This document shows, in pieces, positions 10,665 to 52,193 of a stretch of 64,000 nucleotides of DNA; within the stretch, counting starts at the first letter, position 1, and each line of letters begins with the position of its first letter. The notes below the pieces were generated by a model that saw nothing but the letters and a program-made list of their open reading frames with translations, ran no database searches and was not told the DNA's origin. The translations under genes were made by a program, and so were the position numbers. The stretch is from Patescibacteria group bacterium. GTDB taxonomy: Bacteria; Patescibacteriota; Patescibacteriia; 2-02-FULL-49-11. Location: assembly GCA_041645165.1 (NCBI GenBank), contig JBAZQN010000011.1, positions 1,254 to 65,253 on the forward strand. The letters are read 5' to 3'.

Positions 10665-10707
10665 CCATTATTCCTCCTCTTAAGGTAAGAGGAGGTAAGG
10701 AGGAGTT

Positions 10708-11160: not shown

Positions 11161-11177
11161 ATTTATAACGTTACGTT

Positions 11178-24494: not shown

Positions 24495-25346
24495 ATGATA
24501 TGTGGAGTGTATGATATTCTAATTGTAGATTCTATGGCTAATCTACTGGATATTTTAACTCGGGAGATGGTATTGCGCAATTATAGCCGGAAAACCATTG
24601 CGGCGTATACCAGCGCGGTCAAAGGCCTGTTTACTTTTTACAGAAAACCATTGCGTGATTTGTCATTGGAAGAGATTAAGGAATACTTGTACATCAAGCA
24701 GCAAAAGAAATTTTCCAGCCAGACGATCGCGCTCGCGGCCAATGCCATTAATTTCCTCTATACTCAGATTTACAAGAGACCTAACTTTGAAAAAATTCGG
24801 CATCCCAAACGAAGCCAGAGGTTGCCGGAAGTATTGAGCCGCATTGAAATTGAAAAAATATTGGAGCAGATTGAGAACATCAAGCATCGTTTGCTTATCG
24901 CCTGCGCCTATGGAGCGGGATTGCGGGTAAGCGAGGTGGTGCGGCTGCGCGTACAGGATATTGATATGGCAGATAAAACGATCACGGTCAGACAGGGCAA
25001 AGGCAGAAAAGACCGGCTGACCGTGTTATCAGGAAAGATCGTTAGTGACTTGGAAAAGTTCCTTGTTGGCAAAGAAGGACGAGATTGGGTGTTTGAGAGC
25101 GAACGCGGCGGACGGCTGACCGAAGCCACGGCGCAAAAAGTATTTTATGCCGCTCTTAAGAGAGCGGGGATTAAAAAGCATGCGACATTCCATTCTCTGC
25201 GGCATAGTTTTGCCACGCACCTTTTGGAAAACGGGGTAGACGTGCGTTATGTGCAGGAACTTTTGGGGCATGCGAATATCAGGACCACGCAGATTTACAC
25301 CAAAGTGACGAATCCAAGTCTGAAGAATATAAGAAGCCCGTTGTGA
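24495..25346 (+). CDS. tyrosine site-specific recombinase (XerC/XerD/integrase family)
   Basis: Catalytic residues R (AGLRVSE), K (KGRKDR), HSLRHSF, GHANIRTTQIY with the nucleophile Tyr. The likely start is the ATG at 24534 (MANLLDILT…), giving about 271 aa, which is too short for a canonical IntI. Confidence 0.85.
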   Translation: MICGVYDILIVDSMANLLDILTREMVLRNYSRKTIAAYTSAVKGLFTFYRKPLRDLSLEEIKEYLYIKQQKKFSSQTIALAANAINFLYTQIYKRPNFEKIRHPKRSQRLPEVLSRIEIEKILEQIENIKHRLLIACAYGAGLRVSEVVRLRVQDIDMADKTITVRQGKGRKDRLTVLSGKIVSDLEKFLVGKEGRDWVFESERGGRLTEATAQKVFYAALKRAGIKKHATFHSLRHSFATHLLENGVDVRYVQELLGHANIRTTQIYTKVTNPSLKNIRSPL

Positions 25347-36821: not shown

Positions 36822-36906
36822 AGAACAAATGAGAATACCTTAATTCTGACTCATTGTCCATTGTTTTTCAAGTGCATGCGATTATGGTATTATAGTAGCA
36901 CTGTCC

Positions 36907-37138
36907 TATGCCCCGCAATACAACATCCAAGAGGGAGGCAGAGACATTAGCGCAGAGAATGGATAATATAAGGGAATCTGCATGAGTGCGCTAATAGGTA
37001 TTTTTATGGCCTCCCTCACCGATCGCCAAACGTTTTCTCCCATCATAATTATGCATCACTACTCCAAGGTCGCATTCATTCTAGGTATTTATACCATGCC
37101 AGCCGCGTTTGGCGTTGGATGTTGATATACGGGGTATG
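36907..37138 (+). promoter_or_regulatory. conserved ~230-nt structured 5' leader L, copy 1 (upstream of the Wzy-like gene)
   Basis: Shares tatgccccgYaatacaacatccaagagggaggca … gcctccctcaYcgatcgcca … ggcgttggatgttgatatacggggt(ATG) with 50649-50876. The 5' end is complementary to the segment covering the start codon. Confidence 0.6.
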
Positions 37139-39421
37139 ACTCAAAAATTGCCACACGATAAGGCCGTGCTTCATCCTCTTGCGTGGGGGGTTCTCATACC
37201 GCTTGCGCTGTGTTTGGTGACGCCGCTGTTGGTGCATTCTTCATTTATTTTCCCCTTTATCTCGACGAAGACTTTTTGGTTCCGCAGCTGGGTGGAAGTG
37301 GCCGCCGCATGCTACGCGATCCTCGCATTTAAAGTACCCGGTTACCGTCCGCGCTTTACGCCGGTCATGAAAGCGATTGCCGGATATTTTACAGTTGCGG
37401 TGATCGCGAGTTTGTTTGGAGAAAATCTCTATCGCAGTTTTTGGGGGAACATCGAACGCGGCGAAGGGCTCCTGACACTGATGCATGTATTTGTGTACGG
37501 ATTCTTATGTGCGCAGACTTTAAGGACCAAGAAGCTCTGGGAATATTTTTTTGCGGGCAGCCTAATCGTTGCTATCCTTGTGTCGCTCTATGGCATCGGC
37601 CAGCGTATGGGCGTGAGTTGGGTATTGCATTCAGGCGACACCAGGCTATCGGCGACTATCGGCAATGCATCGTTCCTTGCCGGGTACCTCCTTATGCATA
37701 CCTTCATAGCGCTTTGGTTCGCGCTGACCCCCCGTCATATCGTGTGGCAGATCACCGCGGGGATCGCGTATGTGTTTTTGTGGTACGTGACATATAATAC
37801 CGGCACGCGCGGCGCACTGATTGCAGGAATTATCGTCACCTCTCTTATGGGCTGCGTACTTGCATTCCGCGCGCGAACACGTAAAAGAGCAATACGATTA
37901 GCGACTATTGCTGCCGTGATGGTTGTTATCGGCATCACTGCAAGTATTTTTGTAAAGCGCGATGCGCCCTGGGTGCAGCAGAGCCCGACTCTGAGACGCA
38001 TAGCTTCCATATCCTTTTCAGATATAACCACGCAGTCCCGGTTGCTCACCTGGGAATCTTCGCTGAAAGGCCTGCGCGACCGTCCGCTCTTGGGATACGG
38101 CTATGAGAATTATAATATCGCGTTCAACCGTTATTTCAATCCGCTTATTTATCGGGATGCCGGTTCACAGGTGTGGTTTGATAGGGCGCATAATGTCATT
38201 TTTGATATTGCGCTTACTTCTGGCATAGTCGGTCTCCTTGCTTACTTTTTAATGTTTGGCATGGCGCTTCGCGCGGCGTGGCAATGCGCGCGGCGTGAAG
38301 AACTCGAATCCTCCGTGACAGGCGTGTTATTTGCAAGCCTCCTTATCGCGCACCTTCTCCAGAATCTTTTTGTGTTTGACATTCTCGCTACCTATATCCC
38401 TCTCATGTTGGTATTCGGATTTTTAGATGCAGTGAGCAGCAGGATCCCGTACTCAACGCAAGGCGCGATCGTACCCTCTGGCATGCCGAAATCGGGAGCA
38501 GCTCCCGCAGTGGCAACGATTATCGTGTTAATATTTACATGGTACCATTTTAACTATTTGCCTGCGTCAGTGAATCGCGAGGGGCTGGATGCGATGCGTA
38601 TGAGGATGGAAGGAAGGGGCGCAGAAGCGACTGATAAGTTTAAGAAAGTGATCGGGAGAGACACGTATCAGGCAGGCGAGATTCGGTTAAAGCTTGCCGA
38701 ACACGCGCTCGATATAAGGGCAGGCACGGGTTCAGTGACTGATGAAATTGCGGCAAATACCTTTAACGATGCGATTGATGAAGTTTTGAAAAATATTGAA
38801 GTTTCTCCCAAGGATGCACAGCTTTATTTATACCTCATGAATTTATATTATGCGGGGGGCAAGTATCAGTCAGATCGATTAGGCTTAATAGAGCGCGTAG
38901 GCAAGGAAGCGCTTGCGCTTACTCCCACAAGGCCGCAAACGTATTACCTCCTCGGTCAAGGCGCAGCGGGGAGGGGAGAGTATGAAAAAGCGGCGGATTA
39001 TTTTAAAACTGCAGTTGATTTAAACCCTGCAGTGGTTGAATCGCACTGGAACCTGTCGGTGGCATACCGCCTTGCTAACCGGAAAGACGACGAGCGGAAG
39101 GAATATGAGATCCTCGAAGGCATGGGAATGGGCTATGCGCAGAGAGAAAACCTTGCCGACATTGATCTTATGCGCCTTACGCAAGGCTATGCATCCCTTA
39201 GCGAATATGCGCGCCTTGCAGGCGTATATGAAGTGTTGGCGAGCCGTTATCCCACCAATGCGGAATATATCGCGAAACTGGCTGCCGCATACAAATCAGC
39301 AGGGGATTACCCGCGCGCGCGCGCCATTGCGGCCAAAATGCTTGAGCTTAAACCCGACATGAAAGCTGACGTAGAATCATTTCTCGCGGAAATTGAACAG
39401 GCGGAAAAGGGCAGCCAATAG
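37136..39421 (+). CDS. O-antigen ligase/polymerase-like (Wzy_C) membrane protein with C-terminal TPR repeats
   Basis: Multi-TM. Loop motif RAHNVIFDIALTSGIVGL. C-terminal TPR-like repeats. The ORF track opens inside the leader at 37109. Confidence 0.7.
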   Translation: MTQKLPHDKAVLHPLAWGVLIPLALCLVTPLLVHSSFIFPFISTKTFWFRSWVEVAAACYAILAFKVPGYRPRFTPVMKAIAGYFTVAVIASLFGENLYRSFWGNIERGEGLLTLMHVFVYGFLCAQTLRTKKLWEYFFAGSLIVAILVSLYGIGQRMGVSWVLHSGDTRLSATIGNASFLAGYLLMHTFIALWFALTPRHIVWQITAGIAYVFLWYVTYNTGTRGALIAGIIVTSLMGCVLAFRARTRKRAIRLATIAAVMVVIGITASIFVKRDAPWVQQSPTLRRIASISFSDITTQSRLLTWESSLKGLRDRPLLGYGYENYNIAFNRYFNPLIYRDAGSQVWFDRAHNVIFDIALTSGIVGLLAYFLMFGMALRAAWQCARREELESSVTGVLFASLLIAHLLQNLFVFDILATYIPLMLVFGFLDAVSSRIPYSTQGAIVPSGMPKSGAAPAVATIIVLIFTWYHFNYLPASVNREGLDAMRMRMEGRGAEATDKFKKVIGRDTYQAGEIRLKLAEHALDIRAGTGSVTDEIAANTFNDAIDEVLKNIEVSPKDAQLYLYLMNLYYAGGKYQSDRLGLIERVGKEALALTPTRPQTYYLLGQGAAGRGEYEKAADYFKTAVDLNPAVVESHWNLSVAYRLANRKDDERKEYEILEGMGMGYAQRENLADIDLMRLTQGYASLSEYARLAGVYEVLASRYPTNAEYIAKLAAAYKSAGDYPRARAIAAKMLELKPDMKADVESFLAEIEQAEKGSQ

Positions 39422-39425
39422 CTTT

Positions 39426-41600
39426 ATGGCGATTTTTATGGTTCATAAAATAAAATTAAAAATAATAGCCTGCTTTTTTGTTTTTACCATTTGCATCGGC
39501 ATTGATGGGTCAGGCACATCGCAATCAAGTTTAATGCATGACGAGCAGGAGGGGGTCATCCGCATGGCAGCAATTGCGGAAATCACTTCATCCGTCACGC
39601 GGACGCAAGCGACGGGTACCGTGGTCCCCAATGATCCTGATTTTTTTAAACAGGAATATTTGCAACGAATCAATGCGCCTGAAGCATGGGCGAGGAGCAC
39701 GGGCGCAGAGAGCATTATTGCCGCGGTCATTGATTCCGGCATTGACATCGCTCATCCGGATTTGAAGGACAATATTTGGGTTAATTACCGGGAAATACCG
39801 GGTAATCACGTTGATGACGACGTCAACGGTTATGTGGACGATGTGAACGGTTGGGATTTTATCACCAACACATCAGATCCTAGCCCGAAGTTTACCGAGC
39901 CGTATTCAAAATTAGGAATTAATCACGGCACTATAGTGGCAGGAGTGCTTGCCGCGCGGGGAAACAACAGCATGGGCATCGCAGGCATCGCATGGAAGAC
40001 GAAAATCATGGCGTTGAGAGTGCTTGATGGCGTCGGTGAAGGGCGCACTGATCAGGTAGCGGCCGCCATCAATTATGCGAGGGCAAACGGCGCACGTATT
40101 ATCAACTTGAGCTTCGTCGGACATGATTCCAGCGTGACTATGACCCAGGCGATTTCTGATGCATGGAAAGCAGGCATTCTCATAGTCGCCGCGGCCGGTA
40201 ATGAAGTGAGAGAAGGCATCAATCTTGACGTGACCCCTGCGTACCCCGTATGCCAGTCAGGCACGAATGGGGAGAATTGGGTATTTGGCGTGACCTCAGT
40301 CGATTTGGCGGACCGGCGCGCAAATTTTTCAAATTATGGCAGGCGCTGCGTGGACGTGGCAGCACCGGGCATGTCTGTGTATTCTACGGTGGTGTTTAGG
40401 CCATCGATCATGGGTTATGATGAACCTTACTCGGGCTGGTGGACAGGCACGTCTGTGGCGGTGCCGCAGGTCTCCGGTCTTGCGGCCCTTATTTGGTCCA
40501 TAAAACCTACTTTTACTCTGAGTCAGGTTCAGGATATCATAAAAGAACAGGCGCAGGATATTGATAATAATAATCCGGAAATCGGCGGCCTTTTGGGGCG
40601 CGGAAGGGTGGATATGTATGCATCGCTTGAAAAAGCGATAGCGACCACCCCTGGGTCTAGAGAGGATTATCCCAAGATTTCATCAGGTCCTGCCCCCTCA
40701 TTTATCATTGTGGCACAAAAGTCAGTGGAAGCGCCTGAGGTAAAGGTTTATAATAATAAGACAGAGCTTATAAAAAGTTTTTACGCCTACAATAAGGCAT
40801 CACGCATCGCCGTCAACATTGCGGCCGCTGACCTAGACGGTGACCGTGAGCTTGATGTGGTGACAGGGGTAGGGAAAGGCGGCGCGCCGCAGGTGAATAT
40901 TTTTTCGCTCCAAGGTGTCCTTAAGTCATCCTTTTATGCGTATAACCCGACCTATCTGCGGGGATTCAGCGTCGCCGCAGGCGATGTGGACGGTGACGGG
41001 TATAAGGAAATCGTGACCGCTCCCATGCCCGGCGGCGGGCCGCATATAAGGATTTTTTCTTTTGATGGGAGGCTGAAGAGCCAATTTTTCGCTTTTGAGG
41101 AAAGTACGCGGTATGGGACGAGTGTCGCGACTGGCGATATGGATGGCGATGGTGTGGATGAAATTATTGTGGGTTCTGGCCAGGGCAGGTCTGCAGCAGT
41201 GCGGGTGTTTACCTGGAAAGGGATTTTGAAGCGAGAACTCATTGTGTTCCCTGAATCTTTCGCGGGAGGTGTTTCTGTAGCCACTATCGATTTAGAAGGT
41301 GATAACAAAAAAGAGATTGTCGTGGGCGCGGGACCAGGCGGAGGTCCGCAGGTGAGGATCATCAATCAGGATGGCGGCGTTTTGATGCAATTTTTCGCAT
41401 TTGCGCGGGCGTTTAAAGGGGGAGTACAGGTCGCAAGCGGCGATGTGAATCAGGACCGCCGTGATGAAATAATTGTAGGCGCAGGGACGGGTGGGGGACC
41501 GCAGGTGAGGGTATTTAATTCTTATGGTTCACTCATGACCCAATTTTTTTCTTTTGCGTCTAGTTATCGCGGCGGAGTAAACGTGGCCAGCGGGCAGTGA
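39426..41600 (+). CDS. secreted S8 subtilisin-like protease with C-terminal FG-GAP/VCBS repeats
   Basis: Catalytic D (AVIDSGID), H (HGTIVAG), S (GTSVAVPQVSG). Six or more DxDGDG repeat units. Signal peptide from the M at 39426. Confidence 0.85.
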   Translation: MAIFMVHKIKLKIIACFFVFTICIGIDGSGTSQSSLMHDEQEGVIRMAAIAEITSSVTRTQATGTVVPNDPDFFKQEYLQRINAPEAWARSTGAESIIAAVIDSGIDIAHPDLKDNIWVNYREIPGNHVDDDVNGYVDDVNGWDFITNTSDPSPKFTEPYSKLGINHGTIVAGVLAARGNNSMGIAGIAWKTKIMALRVLDGVGEGRTDQVAAAINYARANGARIINLSFVGHDSSVTMTQAISDAWKAGILIVAAAGNEVREGINLDVTPAYPVCQSGTNGENWVFGVTSVDLADRRANFSNYGRRCVDVAAPGMSVYSTVVFRPSIMGYDEPYSGWWTGTSVAVPQVSGLAALIWSIKPTFTLSQVQDIIKEQAQDIDNNNPEIGGLLGRGRVDMYASLEKAIATTPGSREDYPKISSGPAPSFIIVAQKSVEAPEVKVYNNKTELIKSFYAYNKASRIAVNIAAADLDGDRELDVVTGVGKGGAPQVNIFSLQGVLKSSFYAYNPTYLRGFSVAAGDVDGDGYKEIVTAPMPGGGPHIRIFSFDGRLKSQFFAFEESTRYGTSVATGDMDGDGVDEIIVGSGQGRSAAVRVFTWKGILKRELIVFPESFAGGVSVATIDLEGDNKKEIVVGAGPGGGPQVRIINQDGGVLMQFFAFARAFKGGVQVASGDVNQDRRDEIIVGAGTGGGPQVRVFNSYGSLMTQFFSFASSYRGGVNVASGQ

Positions 41601-41700
41601 GGTAATTGAAAATCAAAATGTAAAATTCAAAACTCAAAATTATGGAGTCCCGCATTAGCGGGACGTAATACCATCATTTTGATTTTTGATTTTTGGATTT
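41600..41700. repeat. heptamer-periodic quasi-palindrome (aaaatca repeats) around the hairpin gagtcccgcattagcgggac
   Basis: Mirror arms aatcaaaatgtaaaattcaaaactcaaaat / attttgatttttgatttttggatttt. Related to 45565-45660. Confidence 0.75.
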
Positions 41701-42730
41701 TAACTTTATTTATATGTCCGTATTTTACGTTTCAGGGAGGCCAAATATTATTGTGACCGGCGCGGCAGGGTTTTTGGGATCGCATCTTGTCGAGATGCTT
41801 CTCAAAAGCGCGAACGTGATCGGCATAGATAATTTTATCACCGGAGACGAACGAAATATCGACACCTTCCTTTCTGACCCTCATTTTGAATTTATCCGCC
41901 ATGATCTGACCGTGCCCATTGATGTGCGGGTATTGCCAGAGCTTAAAAAATTTAAAGCAGCGGTTCAAGGAATCCAGCAGGTCTATCACCTCGCATGCCC
42001 GACCTCGCCAAAAGAATATAACCGCATACCGATTGAGACGCTTAATGCCAATGCCTATGCCACTAAAAATATGCTTGACTTGGCACAGCAGCATAAGGCA
42101 AGATTCCTGTTCACCTCCTCGAGTGCGGTCTATGGCGAACCGAGCGAAAATGCCCCGGTGCCGGAGAAGTGGTGGGGGTACGTCGACCCTGTCGGGCCTC
42201 GTTCGGCGTATAATGAGGGAAAGCGTTTTGCCGAAGCGATCTGCGCCAATTACCGGAATACCTACAGCATGGAGGTGGTAATTGTGAGGATTTTCAATAC
42301 GTTCGGGCCGCGGATGAAGCTCAATGACGGCCGTTTAATTCCTGATCTTATACGGGCGGCATTCAGGAACGAGCCGTTGGTGATCAATGGAGATAAAAAT
42401 GCGATTTCGACATTTTGTTATGTCACCGACATGATCGATGGCATATTGAAAGCGATGGAGGCGAATATGAATCAGCCGGTGAATCTGGGAAGCGATGACC
42501 CAAAACCGATCCGTGAAGTCGCAGAGATGATAGTGCGCCTTGCGAAGTCTACATCTATCATTGAATATCAACCGCACTTGCCCTATACCTCCCGCCAGCT
42601 TACCCCTGATATTGGGGTTGCGCGCAATGAATTAAGCTGGTGGCCCATGGTGGCGCTGGAGGAGGGATTGAGCCAAACAGTCGAATATATGCGCTCCATG
42701 ACGCATGTGTATGATATTGAAAGAGAGTAG
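41693..42730 (+). CDS. UDP-glucuronate decarboxylase (UXS-type NAD-dependent epimerase/dehydratase)
   Basis: VTGAAGFLGSHL, FEFIRHDLTVP, YHLACPTSP, YGEP…YNEGKR match UXS closely. The start may be the ATG at 41714. Confidence 0.8.
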   Translation: MDFNFIYMSVFYVSGRPNIIVTGAAGFLGSHLVEMLLKSANVIGIDNFITGDERNIDTFLSDPHFEFIRHDLTVPIDVRVLPELKKFKAAVQGIQQVYHLACPTSPKEYNRIPIETLNANAYATKNMLDLAQQHKARFLFTSSSAVYGEPSENAPVPEKWWGYVDPVGPRSAYNEGKRFAEAICANYRNTYSMEVVIVRIFNTFGPRMKLNDGRLIPDLIRAAFRNEPLVINGDKNAISTFCYVTDMIDGILKAMEANMNQPVNLGSDDPKPIREVAEMIVRLAKSTSIIEYQPHLPYTSRQLTPDIGVARNELSWWPMVALEEGLSQTVEYMRSMTHVYDIERE

Positions 42731-42734
42731 AAGG

Positions 42735-42875
42735 AAAATATAAATCGAAGTTCTAAATCCGAAACCCTAAACCCTAAACACCCCATCGACTCGGCTCAGG
42801 GTGACAAAGCGGTTGTCATGGTGAGCCGAGTCGAACCATGTTTAGAGTTTAGAGCTTAGAATTTAGAGTTTATTC
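42735..42875. repeat. heptamer-periodic quasi-palindrome (ctaaatc/cgaaacc/ctaaacc… mirrored by gtttaga repeats) with central hairpin cgactcggctca…tgagccgagtcg
   Basis: Arms homologous to 55305-55445. Sits upstream of metK. Confidence 0.8.
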
Positions 42876-42878
42876 AAT

Positions 42879-44060
42879 ATGCAAAAGTCAAAACATTATA
42901 TCTTTACTTCAGAATCAGTAACCGAGGGGCATCCGGACAAAGTCTGCGACCAGGTGTCTGACGCCGTGCTCGACGCGATTTATAAAAATGATCCCTATGC
43001 GCGCGTGGCGTGCGAATGTTTGACTACGACCGGGCTGTTGGTGGTCGCGGGAGAAATCACGACGACCACGTATGTAGATGTCCCCGGCATCGCGCGCAAA
43101 GTTATCCGTGATATCGGCTACAACGATCCTGCCTACGGATTCGATGCTGATTCTTGCGGCGTGATTACCTCCATACATGAGCAAAGCCCAGATATCGCGC
43201 AAGGCGTGGTGGACGGCGAAGGGAAAAAAGGAGAAGGCGCCAGGGAAGTGAAAGGCGCCGGCGACCAAGGGTTGATGTTTGGATATGCCATCAGGGAAAC
43301 AAAAGAGCTTATGCCCCTTCCTATCATGCTCGCGCACAAGCTCGCGCGCCGCTTGGCGCAGGTGAGGAAGGAAGGAGTGCTTCCCTATTTGCGGCCTGAC
43401 GGCAAGACAGAGGTGGCGGTTGAATATGTCAATGGTAAAGCAGTGCGACTTGCCTCGGTTGTCATTGCGGCGCAGCACAATCCCGAGGTGGATGAGTTTA
43501 CCGTGCAGAATGATGTGGTGCAGAAAGTCATTAAGCCTGTATGCGGGAAATTGTTTGACCGAAAAACGCAAGTATTTGTAAATGCCACGGGAAAATTCGT
43601 GATTGGAGGCCCTGCGGGCGATACCGGTCTCACCGGAAGAAAAATCATCGTGGACACCTACGGCGGGCACGGGGCGCACGGCGGCGGTTGCTTCTCGGGC
43701 AAAGACCCTTCCAAGGTGGATCGCTCCGCTTCCTATATGGCGCGTTACGTTGCCAAGAATATCGTAGCCGCACGGCTCGCGGACCGCTGTGAAGTGCAGT
43801 TGGCCTATGTGATAGGGGTAAAAGACCCGGTGAGCATACTCGTGGATACCAAAGGAACAGGAAAAGTGCCTGATGAGAAACTCGCAATGGCAGTGCGCGA
43901 AGTGTTTCCCTTGGATCCCGCGGGGATTATCAAGCATCTCAAACTTCGCCGTCCCATATACCTCAAAACCGCTGCCTACGGCCACTTCGGCCGCTTGGAA
44001 CCTACGTTTACATGGGAAAAGACGGATAAGGTTAATCAATTAAAGAAGAGGTTAAAATAG
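42879..44060 (+). CDS. metK: S-adenosylmethionine synthase
   Basis: Motifs [45 protein letters not shown]-type. Confidence 0.95.
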
Positions 44061-44064
44061 ATTT

Positions 44065-44640
44065 ATGTCTAAGCAAGAGATTCCAGACGGCGGAACTTAC
44101 GAGGAAGACATAGAAAAAAAAGAGCTGGAAAAACCAGTGATTCACTTTGTTTGTCAGCAAGGTAGTTCATCAGGTGAACTATGTAGAAAAGTGGAAGATA
44201 ATATGGAAAGAAATATGGCAGAATTGAAGAAATTAATAAAGTTTAAGGTAGATCCATCTGACGAAATAGGTTTATACCCCACATTACAATATGTTATGAA
44301 ATTATTAGACTCAAATCCAAATGACATTGTTGTTTTTTCCATAGGTAATATTTATGATGTTTTAAAAAAGGTAGAATCGTATAAATCCGATAAAGTCTGG
44401 TTGTCAAGTGTTGAAGAAATGGAGATTATTATTGAAAGGCTTCGTGCCGAATTGGCAAAAGAGCATAGCAGGCTTCTAAGTCTTCCAAAGTTTTATCCTA
44501 TACTAACAGGAGCAGAAGAAGAAGAAGAAAAAGAGATACAATTATTGGCGGAGAAGATAGTAAATTTAGCTGAATTTTTAGCATCACAAAAAGTGCAGAT
44601 ACTGAAGGAAGAGGGGGATACACTCAAGATCAAAGAATAA
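44065..44640 (+). CDS. hypothetical acidic protein (191 aa)
   Basis: AT-rich ORF with no motifs. Begins 4 nt after metK. Confidence 0.4.
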   Translation: MSKQEIPDGGTYEEDIEKKELEKPVIHFVCQQGSSSGELCRKVEDNMERNMAELKKLIKFKVDPSDEIGLYPTLQYVMKLLDSNPNDIVVFSIGNIYDVLKKVESYKSDKVWLSSVEEMEIIIERLRAELAKEHSRLLSLPKFYPILTGAEEEEEKEIQLLAEKIVNLAEFLASQKVQILKEEGDTLKIKE

Positions 44641-44652
44641 AATTTAAAATTT

Positions 44653-45597
44653 ATGGAAATAATTGTCACCGGCGGAGCGGGGTTTATCGGATCGCATGTT
44701 GTGGATGCGCTGATTGGGCGTGGATTTCAGGTAACGGTGATTGATAATCTTATTACTGGCAAGCGGGCAAACGTGCACAAAATAGCTAAGCTGATTAGGT
44801 TGGATGTCAGAAACCCTAAACTTAATAATTTATTTAAAACAATAAAACCTGTATACGTTTTTCATCTTGCAGCGCAAATGGACGTGAAAAAATCATTGAG
44901 AGAGCCGCTTTTTGACGCGAGTGTGAACATATTAGGATCGCTCAACGTGATTAAATCAGCTGCTGATGTTGGGGTGAAAAAATTTATCTTTACCTCAACT
45001 GGCGGCGCAGTCTACGGCGACACATCAATTATTCCCACACCCGAAACAGTACCCGAGGCGCCCATTTCACCATATGGGGTGGCAAAGCTCGCGGTAGATA
45101 AATACCTCCATCAATTTTGGCACGTTGCAGGCATGCCCTATGTGAGCTTGAGATTTGGCAACGTGTATGGACCGCGCCAGCGTGCTGACGGCGAGGCGGG
45201 CGTGGTGGCAATCTTTGCAGGAAGGCTCGTACGCGGATTGCCCTGCGCGATAAATGGGAGCGGTAAACAAACGCGCGATTTCGTATATGTGGGCGATGTA
45301 GTAGATGCGGCTATGAAGGCAATGTATAAACCTTTTGTGGGCACGGTCAACATTGCAACAGGGAAGGAATCATCGGTAAATACGGTATATATGTTGTTGG
45401 CGAAAAACATACAGACGCGTTTGAAGGCCACACATAATCCTGCGATTCAGGGGGAGCAAATGCGCAGCGTGCTAGATTGGAAAAAAGCGAAAAAAGTGCT
45501 AGGATGGAAGCCGAAGGTGAATTTAGAGGAAGGATTGAGGAGAACTATTGCATGGCATTGTCATAATGCAAAAATCAAAAATCAAAAATCAAAATGA
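44653..45597 (+). CDS. NAD-dependent epimerase/dehydratase (GalE-like)
   Basis: VTGGAGFIGSHV, YGVAK (YxxxK). 314 aa. Confidence 0.8.
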   Translation: MEIIVTGGAGFIGSHVVDALIGRGFQVTVIDNLITGKRANVHKIAKLIRLDVRNPKLNNLFKTIKPVYVFHLAAQMDVKKSLREPLFDASVNILGSLNVIKSAADVGVKKFIFTSTGGAVYGDTSIIPTPETVPEAPISPYGVAKLAVDKYLHQFWHVAGMPYVSLRFGNVYGPRQRADGEAGVVAIFAGRLVRGLPCAINGSGKQTRDFVYVGDVVDAAMKAMYKPFVGTVNIATGKESSVNTVYMLLAKNIQTRLKATHNPAIQGEQMRSVLDWKKAKKVLGWKPKVNLEEGLRRTIAWHCHNAKIKNQKSK

Positions 45598-45660
45598 TAG
45601 ATCAAAATTTATAAATTTTGTATTCTCATTTTGCATTTTGAGATTTACATTTTGATTTAT
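45565..45660. repeat. heptamer-periodic quasi-palindrome ((aaaaatc)n … attttgatttt)
   Basis: Overlaps the epimerase C-terminus (…KIKNQKSK). Confidence 0.75.
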
Positions 45661-46336
45661 GACTGTGGTAGTTGTAATTCCCGCTTTTAACGAATCTCGG
45701 ACCATTGCCGAAGTTATCCATGGCTGTTTGCAGCACGCGAGTGAGGTCATGGTCATAAATGACGGTTCGTGCGATGATACTGCGCTGCGCGCGCGTCAGG
45801 CAGGCGCTGCTGTTTTTGAGCATATGGTGAACAGGGGATATGGCGCGGCATTGCAAACCGGCATACAGGCGGCGCTTATGCGCGGTGCGGACATCATCGT
45901 GACCATTGATGCGGACGGCCAGCATGAGCCGGAAGAGATCATAAAGGTTATTGAGCCGCTCCAAAAAGGCGAAGCTGATATCGTGATAGGCGACAGGTTC
46001 GGTACGCAGTCAAAGCGCGAAGGAATGAGTTTATTAAGAAAAGCCTACATTACCGCGGGGAACCTCCTCACATGGATCCTCTACGGCGTATGGCTCTCTG
46101 ATACCCAGTCGGGATTCCGCGCTTATACGCGCAATGCGTTAAGAAATTTGCAGACTCATGCACAGGGTATGGAATTTTCTTCTGAAATCATTGGAGAAGC
46201 GGCTAGACTGGGTTTGAGAATTGCGACTATCCCCATCACAGTGCGCTATACTGACTATTCGATAGGAAAGGGGCAGAATATATCTACAGGTATTGGGACT
46301 GCATTTCGGCTGTTCTTAAGAAGAATTTTGAGATAA
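45659..46336 (+). CDS. GT2 glycosyltransferase (polyprenol-phosphate sugar synthase/DPM1-like)
   Basis: VVIPAFNESRTI … VINDGSCDDT … DADGQH. Confidence 0.8.
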   Translation: MTVVVVIPAFNESRTIAEVIHGCLQHASEVMVINDGSCDDTALRARQAGAAVFEHMVNRGYGAALQTGIQAALMRGADIIVTIDADGQHEPEEIIKVIEPLQKGEADIVIGDRFGTQSKREGMSLLRKAYITAGNLLTWILYGVWLSDTQSGFRAYTRNALRNLQTHAQGMEFSSEIIGEAARLGLRIATIPITVRYTDYSIGKGQNISTGIGTAFRLFLRRILR

Positions 46337-46337
46337 T

Positions 46338-46450
46338 ATAAAGCGTCGAGGTATAAGAAACAAGATACAAGAAACAAACATCAAGCTACAAGATACAATA
46401 ACCAATATTGGTGTTTGTGAGTTGGTTATTGGTGATTATTTGATGATTGT
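46338..46450. repeat. heptamer-periodic quasi-palindrome (aagaaac/aagatac … mirrored gtttcttgg)
   Basis: A related tract lies at 8985-9020. Confidence 0.7.
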
Positions 46451-46453
46451 TTC

Positions 46454-46858
46454 TTGGTAATTGATTATTTACATATGGTTTTCCAGATCATCGCGTGCGC
46501 GTTAATCATATTGATTGTGGGGCGGATCGCATGGCAATTCCGCCGAGGCACGATCAGCGGGAAAGAATTTTTCTTTTGGTCGTTTTTTTGGGTGCTTGCC
46601 GCGGCGGCCATACTCGTGCCCAACGCCTTAACCATGATCGCGAATATATTAGGCATCGGGCGGGGGACTGACCTCGCATTTTACGGCTCATTCGTCATCG
46701 TCGCCTATGTGCTCTTCAGAATTGTGGTACGGATGGATAAGATGGAAAGGGATATCACAAAAGTAGTGAGACATTTGGCGCTTGATGATACGCATCAGGT
46801 ATCACGTATTAAGTATCAGGGGACTGACCGCGATACGCTTGAGAATCGTGATACGTAA
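46454..46858 (+). CDS. small 4-TM membrane protein (DUF2304-like, GT2-associated); the C-terminal ~25 aa are encoded by a taatac heptamer repeat
   Basis: Hydrophobic profile. Nucleotides 46775-46875 are the cgtgatacgtaatacctaatacc repeat. Confidence 0.4.
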   Translation: MVIDYLHMVFQIIACALIILIVGRIAWQFRRGTISGKEFFFWSFFWVLAAAAILVPNALTMIANILGIGRGTDLAFYGSFVIVAYVLFRIVVRMDKMERDITKVVRHLALDDTHQVSRIKYQGTDRDTLENRDT

Positions 46859-46889
46859 TACCTAATACCTAATACTTACTATTATCACC

Positions 46890-48044
46890 ATGCCCCGCGT
46901 CGCCGTGATCATAGTCACCTATAATAGCGCCCGGTTCCTCCCGGAACTTTTCGTAAGCCTTAAGGCCATGCAGCATCCCGCCGGCGGGGTGCAGTTTATT
47001 TTTGTGGACAATGCTTCTGCCGATCACAGTCCAGAATTGGTACGCGAGGCAATGCCGGATGCGGCATTGGTTCGTGAAAAAGAAAATAGAGGATTTTCTG
47101 CAGGTGTGAATGCAGGCTTGAGGCACCCGTTGGCGCAAGGCGTGGAATTTATCGCGCTTCTCAATCCTGACACGGTGGTGCATCCGGATTGGCTCACGGC
47201 CCTCGTGAACGCGTTGGAAGGACAGCGTAAGGCTGTCTCTGCTCAATCTCTTATTCTTTACGCGCAGGATCGCGAGAAGGTAAATTCAGCGGGAAATAGT
47301 ATCCACTTTTTAGGGTTTGGTTTTAGTCAAGCTAACGGGCAGTCCCGATCTGTCATTCTGAACGAAGTCCCGATACCATCGGGACGGAATGAGGAATCGC
47401 CCACGAATGTGGGCTCGCATACGCGAGAGATCCTTCGTCCCGATGCGCTTGGGACTCAGGATGACGTTAAACTCAGCACACATTTCATCACCTACGCGAG
47501 CGGGGCTGCAGTGCTGTACCGACACAATGCGTTGAAGGAAATTGGTTTATTCGACGAAAACCTTTTTATGTACCATGATGATCTTGACGTGGGGTGGAAA
47601 TTTTTGTTACGCGGATACCAGAATATTTTAGTACCCTCCTCGATAGTTTATCATCATTACGAATTTTCACGCAGCATCCGGAAATATTACTGGATAGAGC
47701 GCAATAGGCTCTTGCTCCTGCTTACGCATTATAAATTCAGCACCCTGTTATTAATTTTACCCGCATTAATTATTCTTGAATTCGGGTTGATGTTTTTCGC
47801 GCTCTACCGCGGTTTTTTTGGCGCGCGACTGCGTGCGTACGTATGGATATTTGTTCATGTGCCTTTAATTATGAAAAAACATAAATACGTGCAGAATATA
47901 AGAACACAGCCTGATAAGGCCGTACTTGGATCATTTACCGGTGTCATTACTGACCAAGAGATAAGCAATCCTCTTGTGGAATATGTTATGAATCCGGTGT
48001 TTGCATTATATCTTGCCTTTCTCCGTTATGTTATACGATGGTAG
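46890..48044 (+). CDS. GT2 glycosyltransferase carrying an in-frame RPE-like palindromic insertion
   Basis: VAVIIVTYNSARFL … FVDNASAD … DxD region. Nucleotides 47345-47465 (gtcattctgaacgaagtcc…gggactcaggatgac) encode …SRSVILNEVPIPSGRNEESPTNVGSHTREILRPDALGTQDD…. Confidence 0.8.
   Translation: MPRVAVIIVTYNSARFLPELFVSLKAMQHPAGGVQFIFVDNASADHSPELVREAMPDAALVREKENRGFSAGVNAGLRHPLAQGVEFIALLNPDTVVHPDWLTALVNALEGQRKAVSAQSLILYAQDREKVNSAGNSIHFLGFGFSQANGQSRSVILNEVPIPSGRNEESPTNVGSHTREILRPDALGTQDDVKLSTHFITYASGAAVLYRHNALKEIGLFDENLFMYHDDLDVGWKFLLRGYQNILVPSSIVYHHYEFSRSIRKYYWIERNRLLLLLTHYKFSTLLLILPALIILEFGLMFFALYRGFFGARLRAYVWIFVHVPLIMKKHKYVQNIRTQPDKAVLGSFTGVITDQEISNPLVEYVMNPVFALYLAFLRYVIRW
47345..47465 (+). repeat. 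RPE-like palindromic element, copy 1 (gtcattctgaacg…cccacgaatgtgggctcgcatacgcgagagatccttc…ggtcaggatgac)
   Basis: Terminal arms are inverted-complementary. Copies lie at 48701-48794 and, reversed, at 50514-50573. Confidence 0.85.
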
Positions 48045-48078
48045 GGGCAGAAAATTTTCTGCCCCTACAAGTGAATTT

Positions 48079-49494
48079 ATGCCATACCGAATCGCGCATA
48101 TCACCCCCGTGTACCCGCCTTATGCAGGCGGTATTGGGGTTGTGGCGAAAAATATGGCGGGAGGGTTGGCAGGAAGAAGATGGCAAGTGGAAACGTTTAC
48201 GCCCACGTTGGATAACTCCACCCAACCTCCTCTTAAGTTAAGAGGAGGGGAAGGAGGAGTTATGGATAATAAAATAACGTATCTCAAACCATGGTTGCAT
48301 GTGGGCAATGCGGCGCTCGTGCCGCAATTAAGGAAATTAGAAGGATACGATATCATTCATCTGCATTATCCTTTTTTCGGCGGGGCTGAATTTGTTCTTC
48401 TGGGTATAATTTTTCAACGATTTAATTCCGCGTTTTTCAGCGATAAGGCCACGCGTGACGTTCCGCGTAAGTCAGCGTTCATTTTACAATACCATCATGA
48501 CGCAGACGCTAAAGGTTTGAAGGGGATGATGTTTAAACTTTATGACAGGATTGTGCTCCCGCGTTTGATCACGCGCGCCGACAGGGTGATCGTATCAGCG
48601 ATGGATTATGCGCAACATTCACGCATTGCGAAATACATAAGCGATAAGTTTGTCGAAATACCGTTTGGGGTTGATGCGAAACGATTTGAACCGTTAGGTA
48701 GTCATTCTGAACGTAGTGAAGAATCTCCCGTGCATACGGGCACACCGCTGGCATTCGCCAGAGATCCTTCCCCCGACTCGCGGGGTCAGGATGACAAATC
48801 CGTTATTGTTCTCTTCGTCGGTTCCCTCGACCGCGCGCATTGGTTTAAAGGGTTAGAGGTATTACTTCACGCGTTCGCCATACTGAAACAAGAAAATGAA
48901 CAAAATCGTTTAAAATCTACTCATTTAAACCCTACCCTAAATACCACGAGCCAACTTCGCCATAGTAGCCAAAGGCTACGTCGGCTGAATCGTGGTAATC
49001 CTGCCTGCGCAGGCAGGAGGGAGGGATTGAATTTGAAATGTTTGGTTATAGGCGAAGGTAATCTTAAAGAGAAATATAAAAAAATGGCACAAGATTTAGG
49101 GATTCAAGACCAAGTGCAGTTTTTTGGCAACGTGTCTCAAACGCAATTGCCTGATTATTACCGCAACGCGGACCTTTTTGTGTTTCCTTCGGTATCGCGC
49201 GCGGAAGCATTCGGATTGGTGGCGCTTGAAGCAATGGCGTCAGGTTTGCCCGTCATCGTAAGCGATCTGCCGGGAGTGCGGACGCTGGTGGAAGAGGGGA
49301 TAAACGGATTTAAGGTGCCTGTGAATGATCCACGTGCGTTGGCGCGACGCATTCAGGATCTGATTGAAGATAAGTCACTACGCGGCAGTATGGGACAAAA
49401 AAGCAGAGAAAAGGTTTTAGAGGGTTATACATGGGATAAGGCTATTGACAAGATAGAGAGAGTGTACTTAGATATGTTGGTAAATAAACCATGA
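48079..49494 (+). CDS. GT4 glycosyltransferase with three in-frame repeat-derived insertions
   Basis: N-terminus MPYRIAHITPVYPPYAGGIG. C-terminus EAFGLVALEAMASGLPVIVSD (Glycos_transf_1). Insertions: 48216-48273 (HP2 hairpin plus ggaggagttATG), 48701-48794 (RPE-like), about 48900-49030 (palindromes gccatagtagcc…ggctacg and cctgcctgcgcaggcagg). Confidence 0.75.
   Translation: MPYRIAHITPVYPPYAGGIGVVAKNMAGGLAGRRWQVETFTPTLDNSTQPPLKLRGGEGGVMDNKITYLKPWLHVGNAALVPQLRKLEGYDIIHLHYPFFGGAEFVLLGIIFQRFNSAFFSDKATRDVPRKSAFILQYHHDADAKGLKGMMFKLYDRIVLPRLITRADRVIVSAMDYAQHSRIAKYISDKFVEIPFGVDAKRFEPLGSHSERSEESPVHTGTPLAFARDPSPDSRGQDDKSVIVLFVGSLDRAHWFKGLEVLLHAFAILKQENEQNRLKSTHLNPTLNTTSQLRHSSQRLRRLNRGNPACAGRREGLNLKCLVIGEGNLKEKYKKMAQDLGIQDQVQFFGNVSQTQLPDYYRNADLFVFPSVSRAEAFGLVALEAMASGLPVIVSDLPGVRTLVEEGINGFKVPVNDPRALARRIQDLIEDKSLRGSMGQKSREKVLEGYTWDKAIDKIERVYLDMLVNKP
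48216..48273 (+). repeat. HP2-SD-ATG element (cctcctcttaagttaagaggagg ggaaggaggagttATG) inserted in-frame inside the GT4 gene
   Basis: Same module that precedes the DUF559 and hydrogenase-large-subunit starts. It creates an internal SD plus ATG at 48271. Confidence 0.8.
48701..48794 (+). repeat. RPE-like palindromic element, copy 2 (in-frame in GT4)
   Basis: gtcattctgaacgtagtgaagaatctccc…agatccttcccccgactcgcggggtcaggatgac encodes HSERSEESPVHTGTPLAFARDPSPDSRGQDD. Confidence 0.85.
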
Positions 49495-49532
49495 AATAGC
49501 ATTTTCACAAAATTTGAGAGGAGGTGAGGAAG

Positions 49533-49673
49533 TTGAAAAAGTTCCCACTTTTTCTAATATTTCTGTTGTTGCTAGGTGGTTGCAAGGAGGAGGAGAAGAA
49601 AGAAAAGCAGCAAGATCAGCAACAACAGCAAGAGAAGGAGCAGGAATATACGGGGAAAGAATTAGATGTGTAG
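49533..49673 (+). CDS. small lipoprotein (46 aa, TTG start)
   Basis: SD gaggaggtgagg 7 nt upstream. Signal peptide LKKFPLFLIFLLLLGGC (lipobox) followed by a Glu/Lys/Gln tail. Confidence 0.3.
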   Translation: MKKFPLFLIFLLLLGGCKEEEKKEKQQDQQQQQEKEQEYTGKELDV

Positions 49674-49886
49674 CTCCTTCTTTTAAAAATGCGGCAGGGG
49701 TAATTGACTTGCCGCGGCTTTCTTAGATGAGAATGCATTTATCCTTTAAGAAAGCTTAGGAACTTTGAAGTAGTGAGAGCTTCATGATGCAATTCAGGGG
49801 CTCTTTTATTTATGCACATTGTTGGATTATGAAGAGTGTTATAAGGTGAAGTAATAAACCAATGTAGTTGATATCGAACCTTTACA

Positions 49887-50402
49887 ATGGAGGTCATTAT
49901 GTCCCCGAGAGAGAAGATTGTTGTGAGGGGGATCGTAACATTAGTTTTATTAGTTGGGGGTGGTTGGTGTTTGGTATGTGATTACCTCATGCATAAGTAT
50001 GAGGAGTCACAAATTGGTACAACGTCGACATGGGTGGGGTCGACTGGTACCGTTAATTCACTAGATCTTCCTGAATTAGATAATTTCCAAGCACAGGAGG
50101 ATCTCGAGATGTTCATCCAGCGTCATGAGCTGGCGGACATCCTCCACCGACGGGAATGCTACAGGGTGGCGTTCCCTCATGGAGAGCGACCGGATAGTAC
50201 AGTCGAGTGGCGTGGGCACAGGTCCGATCGTGGCCTTTTCCTTCTTGGGCCACCAACGGGGAGGACCGAACTCTATGAGGAGGGCGGTGAGTGTTATTAT
50301 ATTTTCACCGTTACCTCATTTGCTTCACAACGTTACTTCCTCCCGGGAATAACGATATTCAACGGGTCGCTCTGGCCCGGAGATTACCTTTTCGTTTTTT
50401 AA
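49887..50402 (+). CDS. hypothetical protein with an N-terminal TM helix
   Basis: 171-aa ORF with no motifs. Confidence 0.4.
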   Translation: MEVIMSPREKIVVRGIVTLVLLVGGGWCLVCDYLMHKYEESQIGTTSTWVGSTGTVNSLDLPELDNFQAQEDLEMFIQRHELADILHRRECYRVAFPHGERPDSTVEWRGHRSDRGLFLLGPPTGRTELYEEGGECYYIFTVTSFASQRYFLPGITIFNGSLWPGDYLFVF

Positions 50403-50513
50403 ATCCCGCCGATTTTTTAAAGGAGGAAAACCATTTTCCTCCTTCTGCCCTAGGAGATAAGTTAATTTGTCTTTTAAGGCGGGATTTAGAGAGATGGAGA
50501 AGGTTATGGTATA

Positions 50514-50573
50514 CCGTCCTCGCGCATACGAGCCCACATTCGTGGGAGATTCTTCACTACGTTCAGAATGACG
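50514..50573 (-). repeat. RPE-like element, copy 3 (partial, intergenic)
   Basis: Reverse complement atcgtcattctgaacgtagtgaagaatctcccacgaatgtgggctcgtatgcgcgag. Confidence 0.8.
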
Positions 50574-50605
50574 ATAGGAAGGGTATAAGGGTGTTTTTAT
50601 AGAAG

Positions 50606-50632
50606 AGAGTGTAGTAAGACACTCTTTTTTGA
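50606..50632 (+). terminator. rho-independent terminator (agagtgtagtaagacactct tttttt)
   Basis: 7-bp perfect stem followed by a T6 run, downstream of the 49887..50402 ORF. Confidence 0.6.
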
Positions 50633-50648
50633 TATACAATGATAATGT

Positions 50649-50876
50649 TATGCCCCGTAATACAACATCCAAGAGGGAGGCATAAATTTGAAAAATAGAG
50701 AATGGATTTACTAGGGGAGTCTCGGCGAGTGCATTAAGTGGTTCTTTCCTCGCCTCCCTCATCGATCGCCATACTAATGCCAAGTTTTTTGCGTAACATT
50801 TCATCTTAATCTCATTTATCCATCATAATCATTTTACGCCGTTTGTGTGGCGTTGGATGTTGATATACGGGGTATG
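50649..50876 (+). promoter_or_regulatory. conserved structured 5' leader L, copy 2 (upstream of the GT4 gene)
   Basis: See copy 1 at 36907-37138. It ends …ggcgttggatgttgatatacggggtATG. Confidence 0.6.
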
Positions 50877-52193
50877 AAAGTATTACTTATTAATCATCTT
50901 TATCCCGAAGGCGGGGGCGCAGAAGCGGCGGCGAGAGGATTGGTGCAATTCCTTAAAGTACAAGGGCATGAGGTCGCGGCGCTTACCTTAGGTGATGATA
51001 CAGCAAAGGGTGGAATGAGCGGACGTGATGAAGGTGGCGTTCAAATATATTCTTATAAAACTTTAAGCCGCCGTTTTTCAGAGAAACTGATCGTTTGCTT
51101 ATTCTACGATCGCCCGCCTGCCGCCGCCTTTCATGAGGCTACTATATGTAATGATTTATCTAAAACAAAGCGTGTTAATAGAAGAACTAATAATAGGCTA
51201 TGGCGGGCAGGTAGTATATGCAAACGAGTATTTTTCAGAGCAGGGGCATTTTTGTGCGACTGGATTAATTTGAACGGCCCCTTAAAGGCTTTGCGATTAA
51301 TACAGAAATTAAAACCAGATGTGGTGCATACGCACAATCTGCGCGGGATGGGGATGCTCCTGCCTCTTTTTATCCGATTTGGCAAAGGTAATGCGCGGTG
51401 GATCCATACGCTCCATGATATCCAATTAGTTTATCCCAGCGGCGTGGTGAGGAATTCGAAGTCTGCGCAGATATATGAAATTATCAGAAAGATATATGAG
51501 CAACAGCAGAGGTTGGTTTGGGGTTCGCCGAATGTGGTGGCGTCGCCATCTGATTTTTTAAAAAAGTTTTACGCGGAAAGAGGATTTTTTAGGAAATCGA
51601 AATTTGAGGTAATTCCTAATGTGATAATGGGTGCGGCGCAAGGAGATGAAGAGATGGGGGAGGGGAAGAATTCTATTTCGTTCATTGGCGCGTTGGAGGA
51701 GAGTAAAGGAATACAGATTCTCCTTGAGGCTGCGCAAAGGGTGGGACAGGAATTTCAGCAACGCGCGTTTACCTTAGATATCGTTGGCGACGGGTCATTG
51801 AGGAACAAATTGGCAGCACAATATGCGCGATTCCCGTGGATTCGGTTTCGCGGTGCGTTAAAAGACAAATCATTAAAGGATATTTTTGCACGCGCTTTGG
51901 TCACCGTTATTCCCTCACTGACGCTGGAAAATGCGCCTATGGCAATCCTTGAGAGTTTTCATTTTGGCGTACCGGTTATCGCGAGCCGCATCGGCGGTAT
52001 TCCCGAATATGTGAAAGAAGGGGAGACGGGTTGGCTGTTTAACCTTGGGTCTGTTGATGAGTTAGCTGCATTGTTAAGAAAAATTATTAATGAAGGAGTT
52101 TCCGAAGAGATTTCCCGAAATTGCCAGCGCGTGTCGGTTGATTTGGGCGTACAGGCATATGCCGGCCATGCTGCGCTCTATAATTCGTCATAA
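50874..52193 (+). CDS. GT4 glycosyltransferase
   Basis: MKVLLINHLYPEGGGAE … E-x7-E region … FGVPVIASRIGGIPEYV. The ORF track begins inside the leader at 50847. Confidence 0.8.
   Translation: MKVLLINHLYPEGGGAEAAARGLVQFLKVQGHEVAALTLGDDTAKGGMSGRDEGGVQIYSYKTLSRRFSEKLIVCLFYDRPPAAAFHEATICNDLSKTKRVNRRTNNRLWRAGSICKRVFFRAGAFLCDWINLNGPLKALRLIQKLKPDVVHTHNLRGMGMLLPLFIRFGKGNARWIHTLHDIQLVYPSGVVRNSKSAQIYEIIRKIYEQQQRLVWGSPNVVASPSDFLKKFYAERGFFRKSKFEVIPNVIMGAAQGDEEMGEGKNSISFIGALEESKGIQILLEAAQRVGQEFQQRAFTLDIVGDGSLRNKLAAQYARFPWIRFRGALKDKSLKDIFARALVTVIPSLTLENAPMAILESFHFGVPVIASRIGGIPEYVKEGETGWLFNLGSVDELAALLRKIINEGVSEEISRNCQRVSVDLGVQAYAGHAALYNSS

Follow-up and report, generated by a model that had tools for sequence, protein, structure and literature searches.

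We analysed a 64,000-nucleotide stretch of the genome of a Patescibacteria group bacterium (contig JBAZQN010000011.1, positions 1,254 to 65,253; referred to below as the window) in which two similar non-coding segments lie directly before genes of a polysaccharide gene cluster. By Pfam match, the downstream genes encode a Wzy_C/TPR protein (Wzy in what follows) and a GT4 glycosyltransferase, and the homologues of both are labelled Patescibacteria. We propose, with a probability of about three in four, that the segments are copies of a small (approximately 220–235 bp), non-coding, non-autonomous mobile element of Patescibacteria, of the MITE type (transposable elements of miniature size with inverted repeats). 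Small size (less than approximately 600 bp), lack of coding capacity, terminal inverted repeats, a target duplication seen against an empty site and dispersed copies together mark a MITE-like non-autonomous transposon. A first-pass annotation of this DNA had taken the segments for a candidate cis-regulatory RNA tied to glycan assembly. That tie did not hold: the Wzy site is empty in a relative, the GT4 loci of relatives lack the element, and elsewhere the element stands beside unrelated genes. What survives of the candidate regulatory leader is a conserved, structured, non-coding sequence, not dedicated control of glycan genes. We regard the association with these genes as incidental, and any regulatory effect as a by-product of where the element landed.

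The two copies and their immediate surroundings are arranged as follows.

36865..36893, plus strand: native Wzy promoter, TTTTCA-17-TGgTATTAT; kept at the empty sites of loci L124 and L126, and outside the element.
36907..36910, plus strand: left TATG of copy 1; its ATG (36908-10) stands in the native promoter context and opens a short open reading frame (ORF); L124 has a single TATG here.
36911..37134, plus strand: element copy 1, 224 bp, separating the start codon of Wzy from its promoter (nhmmer E = 7e-66).
37135..37138, plus strand: right TATG of copy 1; ATG 37136-38 is the true Wzy start, where the orthologues P0055-P0057 begin.
37136-39421, plus strand: Wzy_C/TPR gene (Pfam Wzy_C and TPR).
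50649..50652, plus strand: left TATG of copy 2, a direct repeat.
50653..50872, plus strand: element copy 2, 220 bp, directly 5' of the GT4 gene (nhmmer E = 1e-59).
50873..50876, plus strand: right TATG of copy 2; ATG 50874-76 is the true GT4 start, where the orthologue in L002 begins MKILLINH.
50874-52193, plus strand: GT4 gene (Pfam GT4).

Pairwise alignment of the two copies shows three near-identical blocks with diverged sequence between them: 33 nt at the 5' end, 20 nt in the interior and 30 nt at the 3' end. None of the blocks is found in the 64 kb other than at these two places, and shuffled sequences gave a mean of 0.00–0.01 matches and never two. The earlier description of two look-alike copies, each sharing three blocks and adjoining an ATG, is thus confirmed.

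The closest orthologues of Wzy, at 85, 83 and 74% protein identity (L124 and L126 being the 85% and 74% cases), retain the local gene order (Bac_transf minus, Wzy plus strand). In L124 the intergenic DNA (...ttcaagtgcatacgattatggtattatagtagcactgtttTATGactcaaaaaatgccacatgataaggc) carries no element, and the native promoter runs straight into TATG-Wzy; the sequence ...gattatggtattatagtagcactgtttTATGactcaaaaa... corresponds to the window flanks minus 228 bp, with just one TATG between those flanks. In the window the left flank matches up to the TATG at 36907-10, after which come 224 bp, a second TATG at 37135-38 and the matching right flank. L124 is therefore an exact empty site that shows a 4-bp duplication of the target TATG at copy 1; the repeat may alternatively be read as a 3-bp duplication, with the element beginning at G. 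The Wzy locus of L126 also lacks the element, as does L125, in which the intergenic DNA upstream of Wzy is different. The extended -10 reported upstream of copy 1 is real (TTTTCA-17-TATTAT with TG, 36865-36893), and because the -10 box is kept at the empty site, it belongs to the native Wzy promoter. Insertion took place 3' of this promoter and 5' of the Wzy ATG. The loci of the closest GT4 orthologues, L002, L003 and L004 (74, 68 and 55% identity, L002 being the 74% case), likewise have no element, and their two GT4 genes adjoin or overlap (ATGA).

Further copies occur in other Patescibacteria, so the pair in the window is not merely a local duplication. A genome scan with an 18-mer, covering one genome per species, gave one true copy among six matches, L006, from Ca. 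Uhrbacteria RIFCSPLOWO2_02_FULL_49_11. A metagenome scan with another 18-mer listed 111 matches, at least five of which (three distinct sequences) carry the other blocks too; the metagenome copies among the matches listed are L018, L024 and its duplicate L044, L026, and L092. A profile of the 46-aa spurious ORF inside the element matched only P0053 and thereby led to L123, a strain variant of L006. Together these amount to at least six independent insertions in approximately four lineages, two of them in the window. The copies outside the window are placed as follows.

L018, 2159-2392, minus strand: between priA and def, adjoining the def ATG.
L026: 3' of ruvB, adjoining the ATG of an 82-aa membrane protein.
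L024 (identical to L044): 35 nt ahead of the start of dnaX, within a divergent promoter region.
L006 (identical to L092) and L123: on one side tRNA-Ser(GCU) (minus strand), on the other the 3' end of a convergent ComF gene, with no gene downstream on the strand of the element.

A seven-copy nhmmer profile run over the fetched loci and the window added no copies, and blastn against plasmid and phage collections gave no element match. Scans of viral contigs with four different conserved blocks gave one chance match in a coding region and otherwise none. The 55-aa minus-strand ORF of the element matched only itself among 1.84 billion representatives. The 18-mer CTCCCTCAYCGATCGCCA on its own also matched at least 100 unrelated metagenome contigs (L012-L122) that lack the other blocks of the element.

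What do the copies have in common beyond their ends? The predicted RNA fold is a three-way junction, in which helix P1 closes the element and helices P2 and P3 lie inside. P1 pairs CCCCG..AACAUCCAA with UUGGAUGUU..CGGGG, P2 pairs GAGGGAGGC with GCCUCCCUC, the junction reads AYCGAU, and P3 pairs CGCCAnAC with GUnUGGCG. In the window its strands are distributed as follows.

36911..36930, plus strand: copy 1, 5' strand of P1 and left terminal inverted repeat (CCCCG, an internal loop, AACATCCAA).
36931..36939, plus strand: copy 1, 5' strand of P2 (GAGGGAGGC).
37009..37032, plus strand: copy 1, internal conserved block, consisting of the 3' strand of P2 (GCCTCCCTC), the junction ACCGAT and the 5' strand of P3 (CGCCAAACG).
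37106..37134, plus strand: copy 1, 3' strand of P3 (CGTTTGGCG), then 3' strand of P1 and right inverted repeat (TTGGATGTT GATATA CGGGG).
50673..50681, plus strand: copy 2, 5' strand of P2.
50752..50774, plus strand: copy 2, internal block, consisting of the 3' strand of P2, the junction ATCGAT and the 5' strand of P3 (CGCCATAC).
50845..50872, plus strand: copy 2, 3' strand of P3 (GTGTGGCG), 3' strand of P1 and right inverted repeat.

Both window copies fold with their ends paired (z = -4.3 and -4.6). The complementarities named by the first-pass annotation are genuine: the terminal arms are 77% complementary over 31 nt, flanks included, and AGAGGGAGGC pairs with GCCTCCCTC. Its nested long-range fold is likewise present, with the start-codon region paired, but it had missed the third helix, P3 (CGCCAnAC / GTnTGGCG); and the divergence it saw in the middle of the copies is real but falls into two regions, the interiors of P2 and P3, rather than one central 70-nt stretch. 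The terminal inverted repeats, CCCCG(N6)AACATCCAA / TTGGATGTT(N6)CGGGG, are imperfect and are kept in all copies except at the degenerate left end of L024.

For all seven sequences the minimum-free-energy fold is this three-way junction, with z-scores from -2.0 to -6.3. Overall identity among the seven is 58–75%, whereas the P1, P2, junction and P3 blocks are 97–100% identical and the sequence outside the kept blocks has diverged to approximately 50%; this contrast rules out uniform neutral decay after insertion. In alignment A4, which comprises the seven sequences, 96.9% of cells are paired and four pairs are changed on both sides. The covariation score is 0.106, compared with 0.050 +/- 0.013 in shuffled alignments (reached in 0 of 500) and 0.005–0.041 in slid controls. 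Inspected by hand, P1a is C-G in some copies and A-U in others, while P3 varies as A-U/U-G/C-G at position 6, G-C/U-A at position 9 and U-A/C-G at position 10. Compensatory changes are hence found in P1 and P3. P3 links the internal block with the right subterminal region and is not a terminal repeat. G-U pairs lie on the plus strand, whose z-score is slightly more negative in 7/7 sequences; both strands fold well, making this weak evidence as to strand. Taken together, pairing and covariation indicate that the three-way-junction fold is under selection, with the modest support that seven sequences can give. L006 keeps the full fold with no gene downstream; what is constrained is therefore the element itself and not the control of a host gene. 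No alternative conserved fold was seen; P3 does have a competitor in a local hairpin, CGCCA-N8-TGGCG, but L006 lacks it.

Searches of Rfam also bear on the nature of this structure. At the gathering score the whole window gave nothing but a tRNA, and at E <= 10 neither window copy had a match, chance-level matches appearing on L123 alone.

Two of the additional copies show local peculiarities. In L024 (2480-2498, minus strand) the left CCCAG is lost and replaced by CAATACAAG, a partial duplication of the adjacent CAATACAAC, so that P1a cannot form; its fold z-score (-2.0) is also the weakest of all, and the copy seems to be decaying. L006 and L123 are 98% identical, and their differences cluster at the top of the 3' strand of P2 (CGAGTCTCCCTC vs CATGCCTCCCTC), where one G-C pair becomes G-U (L006 273-285 vs L123 611-623).

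Every copy with intact ends is surrounded by a 4-bp direct repeat. The flanking tetranucleotides are TATG/TATG in both window copies, L018, L026 and L024, and CAAG/CAAG in L006 and L123. CAAG is unable to extend P1; the flanking tetranucleotides are therefore duplicates of the target struck in each case and lie outside the stem. A -10-like hexamer lies 3–14 nt upstream of every copy.

The commonest target closely resembles the way genes begin in this lineage. T stands at position -1 in 27 of the 32 long ATG-initiated ORFs of the window, compared with 26% of all ATG trinucleotides, and before the start codon in 36 of 39 called genes from five related loci (L001, L003, L004, L124 and L126). Shine-Dalgarno sites are almost absent; just HSP20 and one minus-strand gene with its start at 62592 have an AGGAGG-type site. 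Often a -10-like hexamer lies 5–15 nt 5' of the gene start, a spacing that suggests very short leaders or leaderless mRNAs in the lineage. The window contains approximately 9.6 TATG sites per kb, both strands counted, most of them in coding sequence. An insertion at a coding TATG would be lost, and we infer that start codons make up a large share of the tolerated sites. The finding of four of the five TATG insertions at start codons is accordingly not clearly above expectation, and we do not claim active targeting of start codons.

We propose the following model for the insertion of the element and its consequences. A transposase supplied in trans would make 4-bp staggered cuts with a preference for TATG and, given that preference and the prevalence of tATG gene starts, the element would tend to land on start codons. 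The duplication would regenerate an ATG on both sides, leaving the gene intact with a 228-nt structured leader. The element is probably co-transcribed as the 5' leader of both window genes, to judge from the arrangement of the sequence, in which the native promoter lies directly 5' of copy 1. Promoter and terminator scans predicted no outward promoter inside the element and no terminator after it. A terminator claimed 5' of copy 2 is plausible as a hairpin plus T-run (50603-50628) but was not flagged by the terminator scan. The conserved fold would serve the element itself, in transposition or in making insertions tolerable, rather than the sensing of a ligand for the host.

How might a gene so interrupted remain expressed? 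In the minimum-free-energy folds of both window copies, P1 pairs the true AUG with the duplicated AUG, and in a leader this pairing would mask the true start. The upstream ATG would keep the native initiation context and open a short ORF that crosses the 5' strands of P1 and P2. The two window copies carry it as follows.

36908..36985, plus strand: short ORF of copy 1, 25 codons (MPRNTTSKREA...), starting at the duplicated ATG and crossing the 5' strands of P1 and P2.
50650..50685, plus strand: short ORF of copy 2, 11 codons (MPRNTTSKREA), starting at the duplicated ATG.

In the five TATG copies this frame stays open for 25 and 11 codons (window copies 1 and 2), 77 (L018), 21 (L026) and 31 (L024). 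By translating it, ribosomes would open P1 and make the true ATG accessible, coupling expression to the rate of native initiation, and the true start would need no Shine-Dalgarno site in this lineage. Release may alternatively come from RNase III, which could cleave the approximately 20-bp P1 helix to give an mRNA with a short leader. Unmasking by the short ORF is, judging from the sequences, the most likely means by which interrupted genes, including def, would be kept expressed; def is normally essential. In the def copy (L018 2159-2392, minus strand) a 1-nt deletion in the 5' strand of P2 keeps the short ORF open through the whole element, and its stop codon, a TGA, overlaps the def start (ATGA), a textbook arrangement for translational coupling. 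We consider it doubtful, though worth stating, that the three-way junction is itself a functional transposon RNA, either a cofactor or guide for a strand-specific, RNA-dependent insertion or homing system whose genes lie elsewhere in these genomes, or a portable translation cassette. Such a cassette would target tATG, recreate the start codon and unmask the real start through the short ORF of the duplicated ATG, and the element could then enter essential genes such as def without killing the host.

Several observations weigh against a MITE-type element. Copy 2 has no exact empty site, because the relatives miss the entire 1.38-kb interval in which it lies. All five TATG insertions share one orientation relative to a non-palindromic target, a pattern uncommon among DDE transposases that may point to a strand-specific mechanism or to selection. 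Independent copies number just six, in approximately four lineages, among the matches listed. No autonomous partner insertion sequence with the same ends is present in the window or the fetched loci, and no transposase gene was found, Pfam searches of window ORFs of at least 180 aa giving just an Xer-like recombinase. The pairing of an internal block with both subterminal regions is more elaborate than in typical transposase-binding inverted repeats. Finally, the effect on translation, by short-ORF unmasking or RNase III cleavage, is proposed from sequence logic.

The surroundings of copy 2 have features of their own. Approximately 1.15 kb (49497-50648) separates the two GT4 genes in the window and is absent from the three relatives. 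The interval 49491-50879 is bounded by a direct ATGAAA (49491-96 and 50874-79) and holds a lipoprotein-like, Q/E/K-rich small ORF (49534-49674) and a 171-aa ORF (49887-50402) with no Pfam match, both with strong GGAGG sites, unlike genes nearby. A degenerate copy of the 3' end of the first GT4 gene (49457-72 resembles 50604-19) hints at a longer duplication. Possibly the interval was inserted earlier and independently, and copy 2 then landed in it. A 10-nt exact match to the right end of the element (ATATACGGGG) at 49646-49655, inside the lipoprotein-like ORF, is probably due to chance, approximately 0.3 such matches being expected.

The alternative that best accommodates the fixed orientation is a strand-specific mobile element, dependent on RNA or single-stranded DNA, in place of a classical MITE; we judge it unlikely, but more credible than the other alternatives. 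It could be a non-autonomous IS200/IS605-type element (PATE) inserting 3' of a tetranucleotide, or could encode, in its conserved three-way-junction RNA, an omega RNA-like or bridge RNA-like cofactor for a nuclease or recombinase located elsewhere. Besides the orientation of the five TATG copies, such an element would explain selection on a fold of one strand that includes an internal block that is no terminal repeat, the G-U pairs and lower z-scores of the plus strand, and the -10-like hexamers 5' of every copy. However, in IS200/IS605 elements the subterminal hairpins are local and terminal inverted repeats are lacking, neither of which fits here, and CAAG on both sides of L006 fits a target duplication rather than a cleavage site carried by the element. 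The variable loops match their own flanks no longer than they match those of other copies, the window contains no TnpA, TnpB, IscB or IS110 gene, and neither HEARO nor any other Rfam family was matched. A guide RNA of the bridge RNA or omega RNA type was rejected for want of any excess of loop complementarity to own flanks over other copies' flanks. Adenine-specific differences of the diversity-generating retroelement type were also discarded, since by eye the copies differ at all bases and by indels.

There is little to recommend a stand-alone, trans-acting small RNA gene, members of whose family were duplicated beside other genes. The Uhrbacteria copy leads no gene and nonetheless keeps the full fold and an upstream -10-like hexamer, as such a gene would. 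However, the exact empty site and the 4-bp repeats denote insertion and not an ancestral gene, and four of the six independent copies adjoin a start codon with no terminator between, none following the element.

Less probable still is a riboswitch-like leader that would regulate glycan genes, through sequestration of their start codons, in response to a metabolite or second messenger. The conserved fold with some covariation, the paired start codon and the position of both window copies before glycan genes are the points in its favour. The element is nevertheless missing 5' of Wzy in L124, L125 and L126 and of GT4 in L002, L003 and L004, target duplications flank it, Rfam has no match for it, and the genes downstream are unrelated (Wzy, GT4, def, a small membrane protein, dnaX or none). 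The empty site in particular largely refutes a riboswitch, and we drop this interpretation.

We give virtually no credence to a coding 3' end, in which the genes would start at TTG or GTG with an N-terminal MALDVDIRGM extension: a gene caller did choose GTG 50847 for GT4 (P0001) and the frame is open in all copies, but element-free orthologues begin at ATG, the nine residues precede unrelated proteins at 100% nucleotide identity, and in L006 the frame leads to no gene. The element has stops in every frame in most copies, and the unrelated proteins with the identical nine residues in front are those of Wzy, GT4, def and a membrane-protein gene. By this comparison of sequences the MALDVDIRGM N-termini, whose reality the first-pass annotation had named as a refuting condition, are gene-caller artefacts. 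Gene callers and ORF lists extend the downstream genes from GTG or TTG to produce false MALDVDIRGM or MALDVDILGM N-termini at 50847-50873, 37109-37135, L018 2162-2188 (minus strand) and L026 1812-1838, and the database protein P0001 (448 aa) carries the extension called from GTG 50847.

With the mobile-element interpretation one riboswitch candidate proves false, and the origin of such false positives becomes apparent: where a genome is compact, a transposon whose ends pair and which sits on start codons mimics a conserved structured leader. This interpretation would also document in Patescibacteria a MITE-like family that matches no Rfam family and no phage or plasmid collection. Our literature search found no published description of MITEs in the candidate phyla radiation, Parcubacteria or Patescibacteria, and nothing pertinent on leaderless translation in the candidate phyla radiation or Patescibacteria. 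The remaining interest lies in the selected three-way junction and in an element whose target matches the start signal of its lineage; the near-universal tATG starts, close to -10-like boxes and lacking Shine-Dalgarno sites, may merit a study of their own. If the fold proves to be needed for mobility or for expression of interrupted genes, the element would provide a compact natural system for Shine-Dalgarno-independent initiation in bacteria not yet easily grown. Elsewhere in the window, an Xer-like tyrosine recombinase (Phage_integrase plus SAM-like N domain, 24495-25346), NiFe-hydrogenase-like genes (Oxidored_q6 and NiFeSe_Hases, 8963-12488) and one tRNA (5023-5094) have no apparent link to the element.

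How does the element compare with known systems? Riboswitches and other structured 5' leaders share with it a multi-helix junction whose closing helix pairs the start codon; unlike them, the Patescibacteria element is mobile, has no steady gene association, is absent at orthologous loci and lacks an Rfam match. In the coupling of MS2 coat and replicase genes and in leader-peptide control, an upstream ORF crosses the strand that masks a downstream start. We use these systems as a working analogy alone, since here the upstream start codon is made by the target duplication of a transposon and the coupling is our proposal. PATEs resemble the element in their orientation-specific insertion beside a fixed tetranucleotide (5/5 for TATG here, although selection could do the same) and in a function that depends on one-strand folding. 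Their hairpins are local and subterminal, and they lack both terminal inverted repeats and a target duplication, whereas here the ends pair together, there are no conserved local hairpins, and the tetranucleotide is duplicated even when atypical (CAAG). ERIC, RUP and BOX sequences are likewise non-coding repeats in transcribed intergenic DNA, with a stable RNA fold and unrelated neighbouring genes. They share no sequence similarity with the element and are confined to Enterobacteria or Streptococcus, while in the Patescibacteria element the 4-bp duplications are clear and an empty site is exact.

Among known kinds, transcribed bacterial MITEs come closest, for example the Correia elements (CREE) of Neisseria. 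Correia elements are 100–155 bp long and number in the hundreds, with promoter hexamers, an IHF site and a duplication of TA; the helix formed by their paired ends is an RNase III substrate that alters the fate of the mRNA. The Patescibacteria element differs in its length of approximately 224 bp, its 4-bp duplication, usually of TATG, its three-way junction formed through an internal block, its lack of a predicted internal promoter and the handful of copies among the matches listed. Both are small and non-coding, with terminal inverted repeats, a short target duplication and paired ends that form a long RNA helix, and both are found between a promoter and its gene and co-transcribed, often so for Correia elements and probably so for the element described here.

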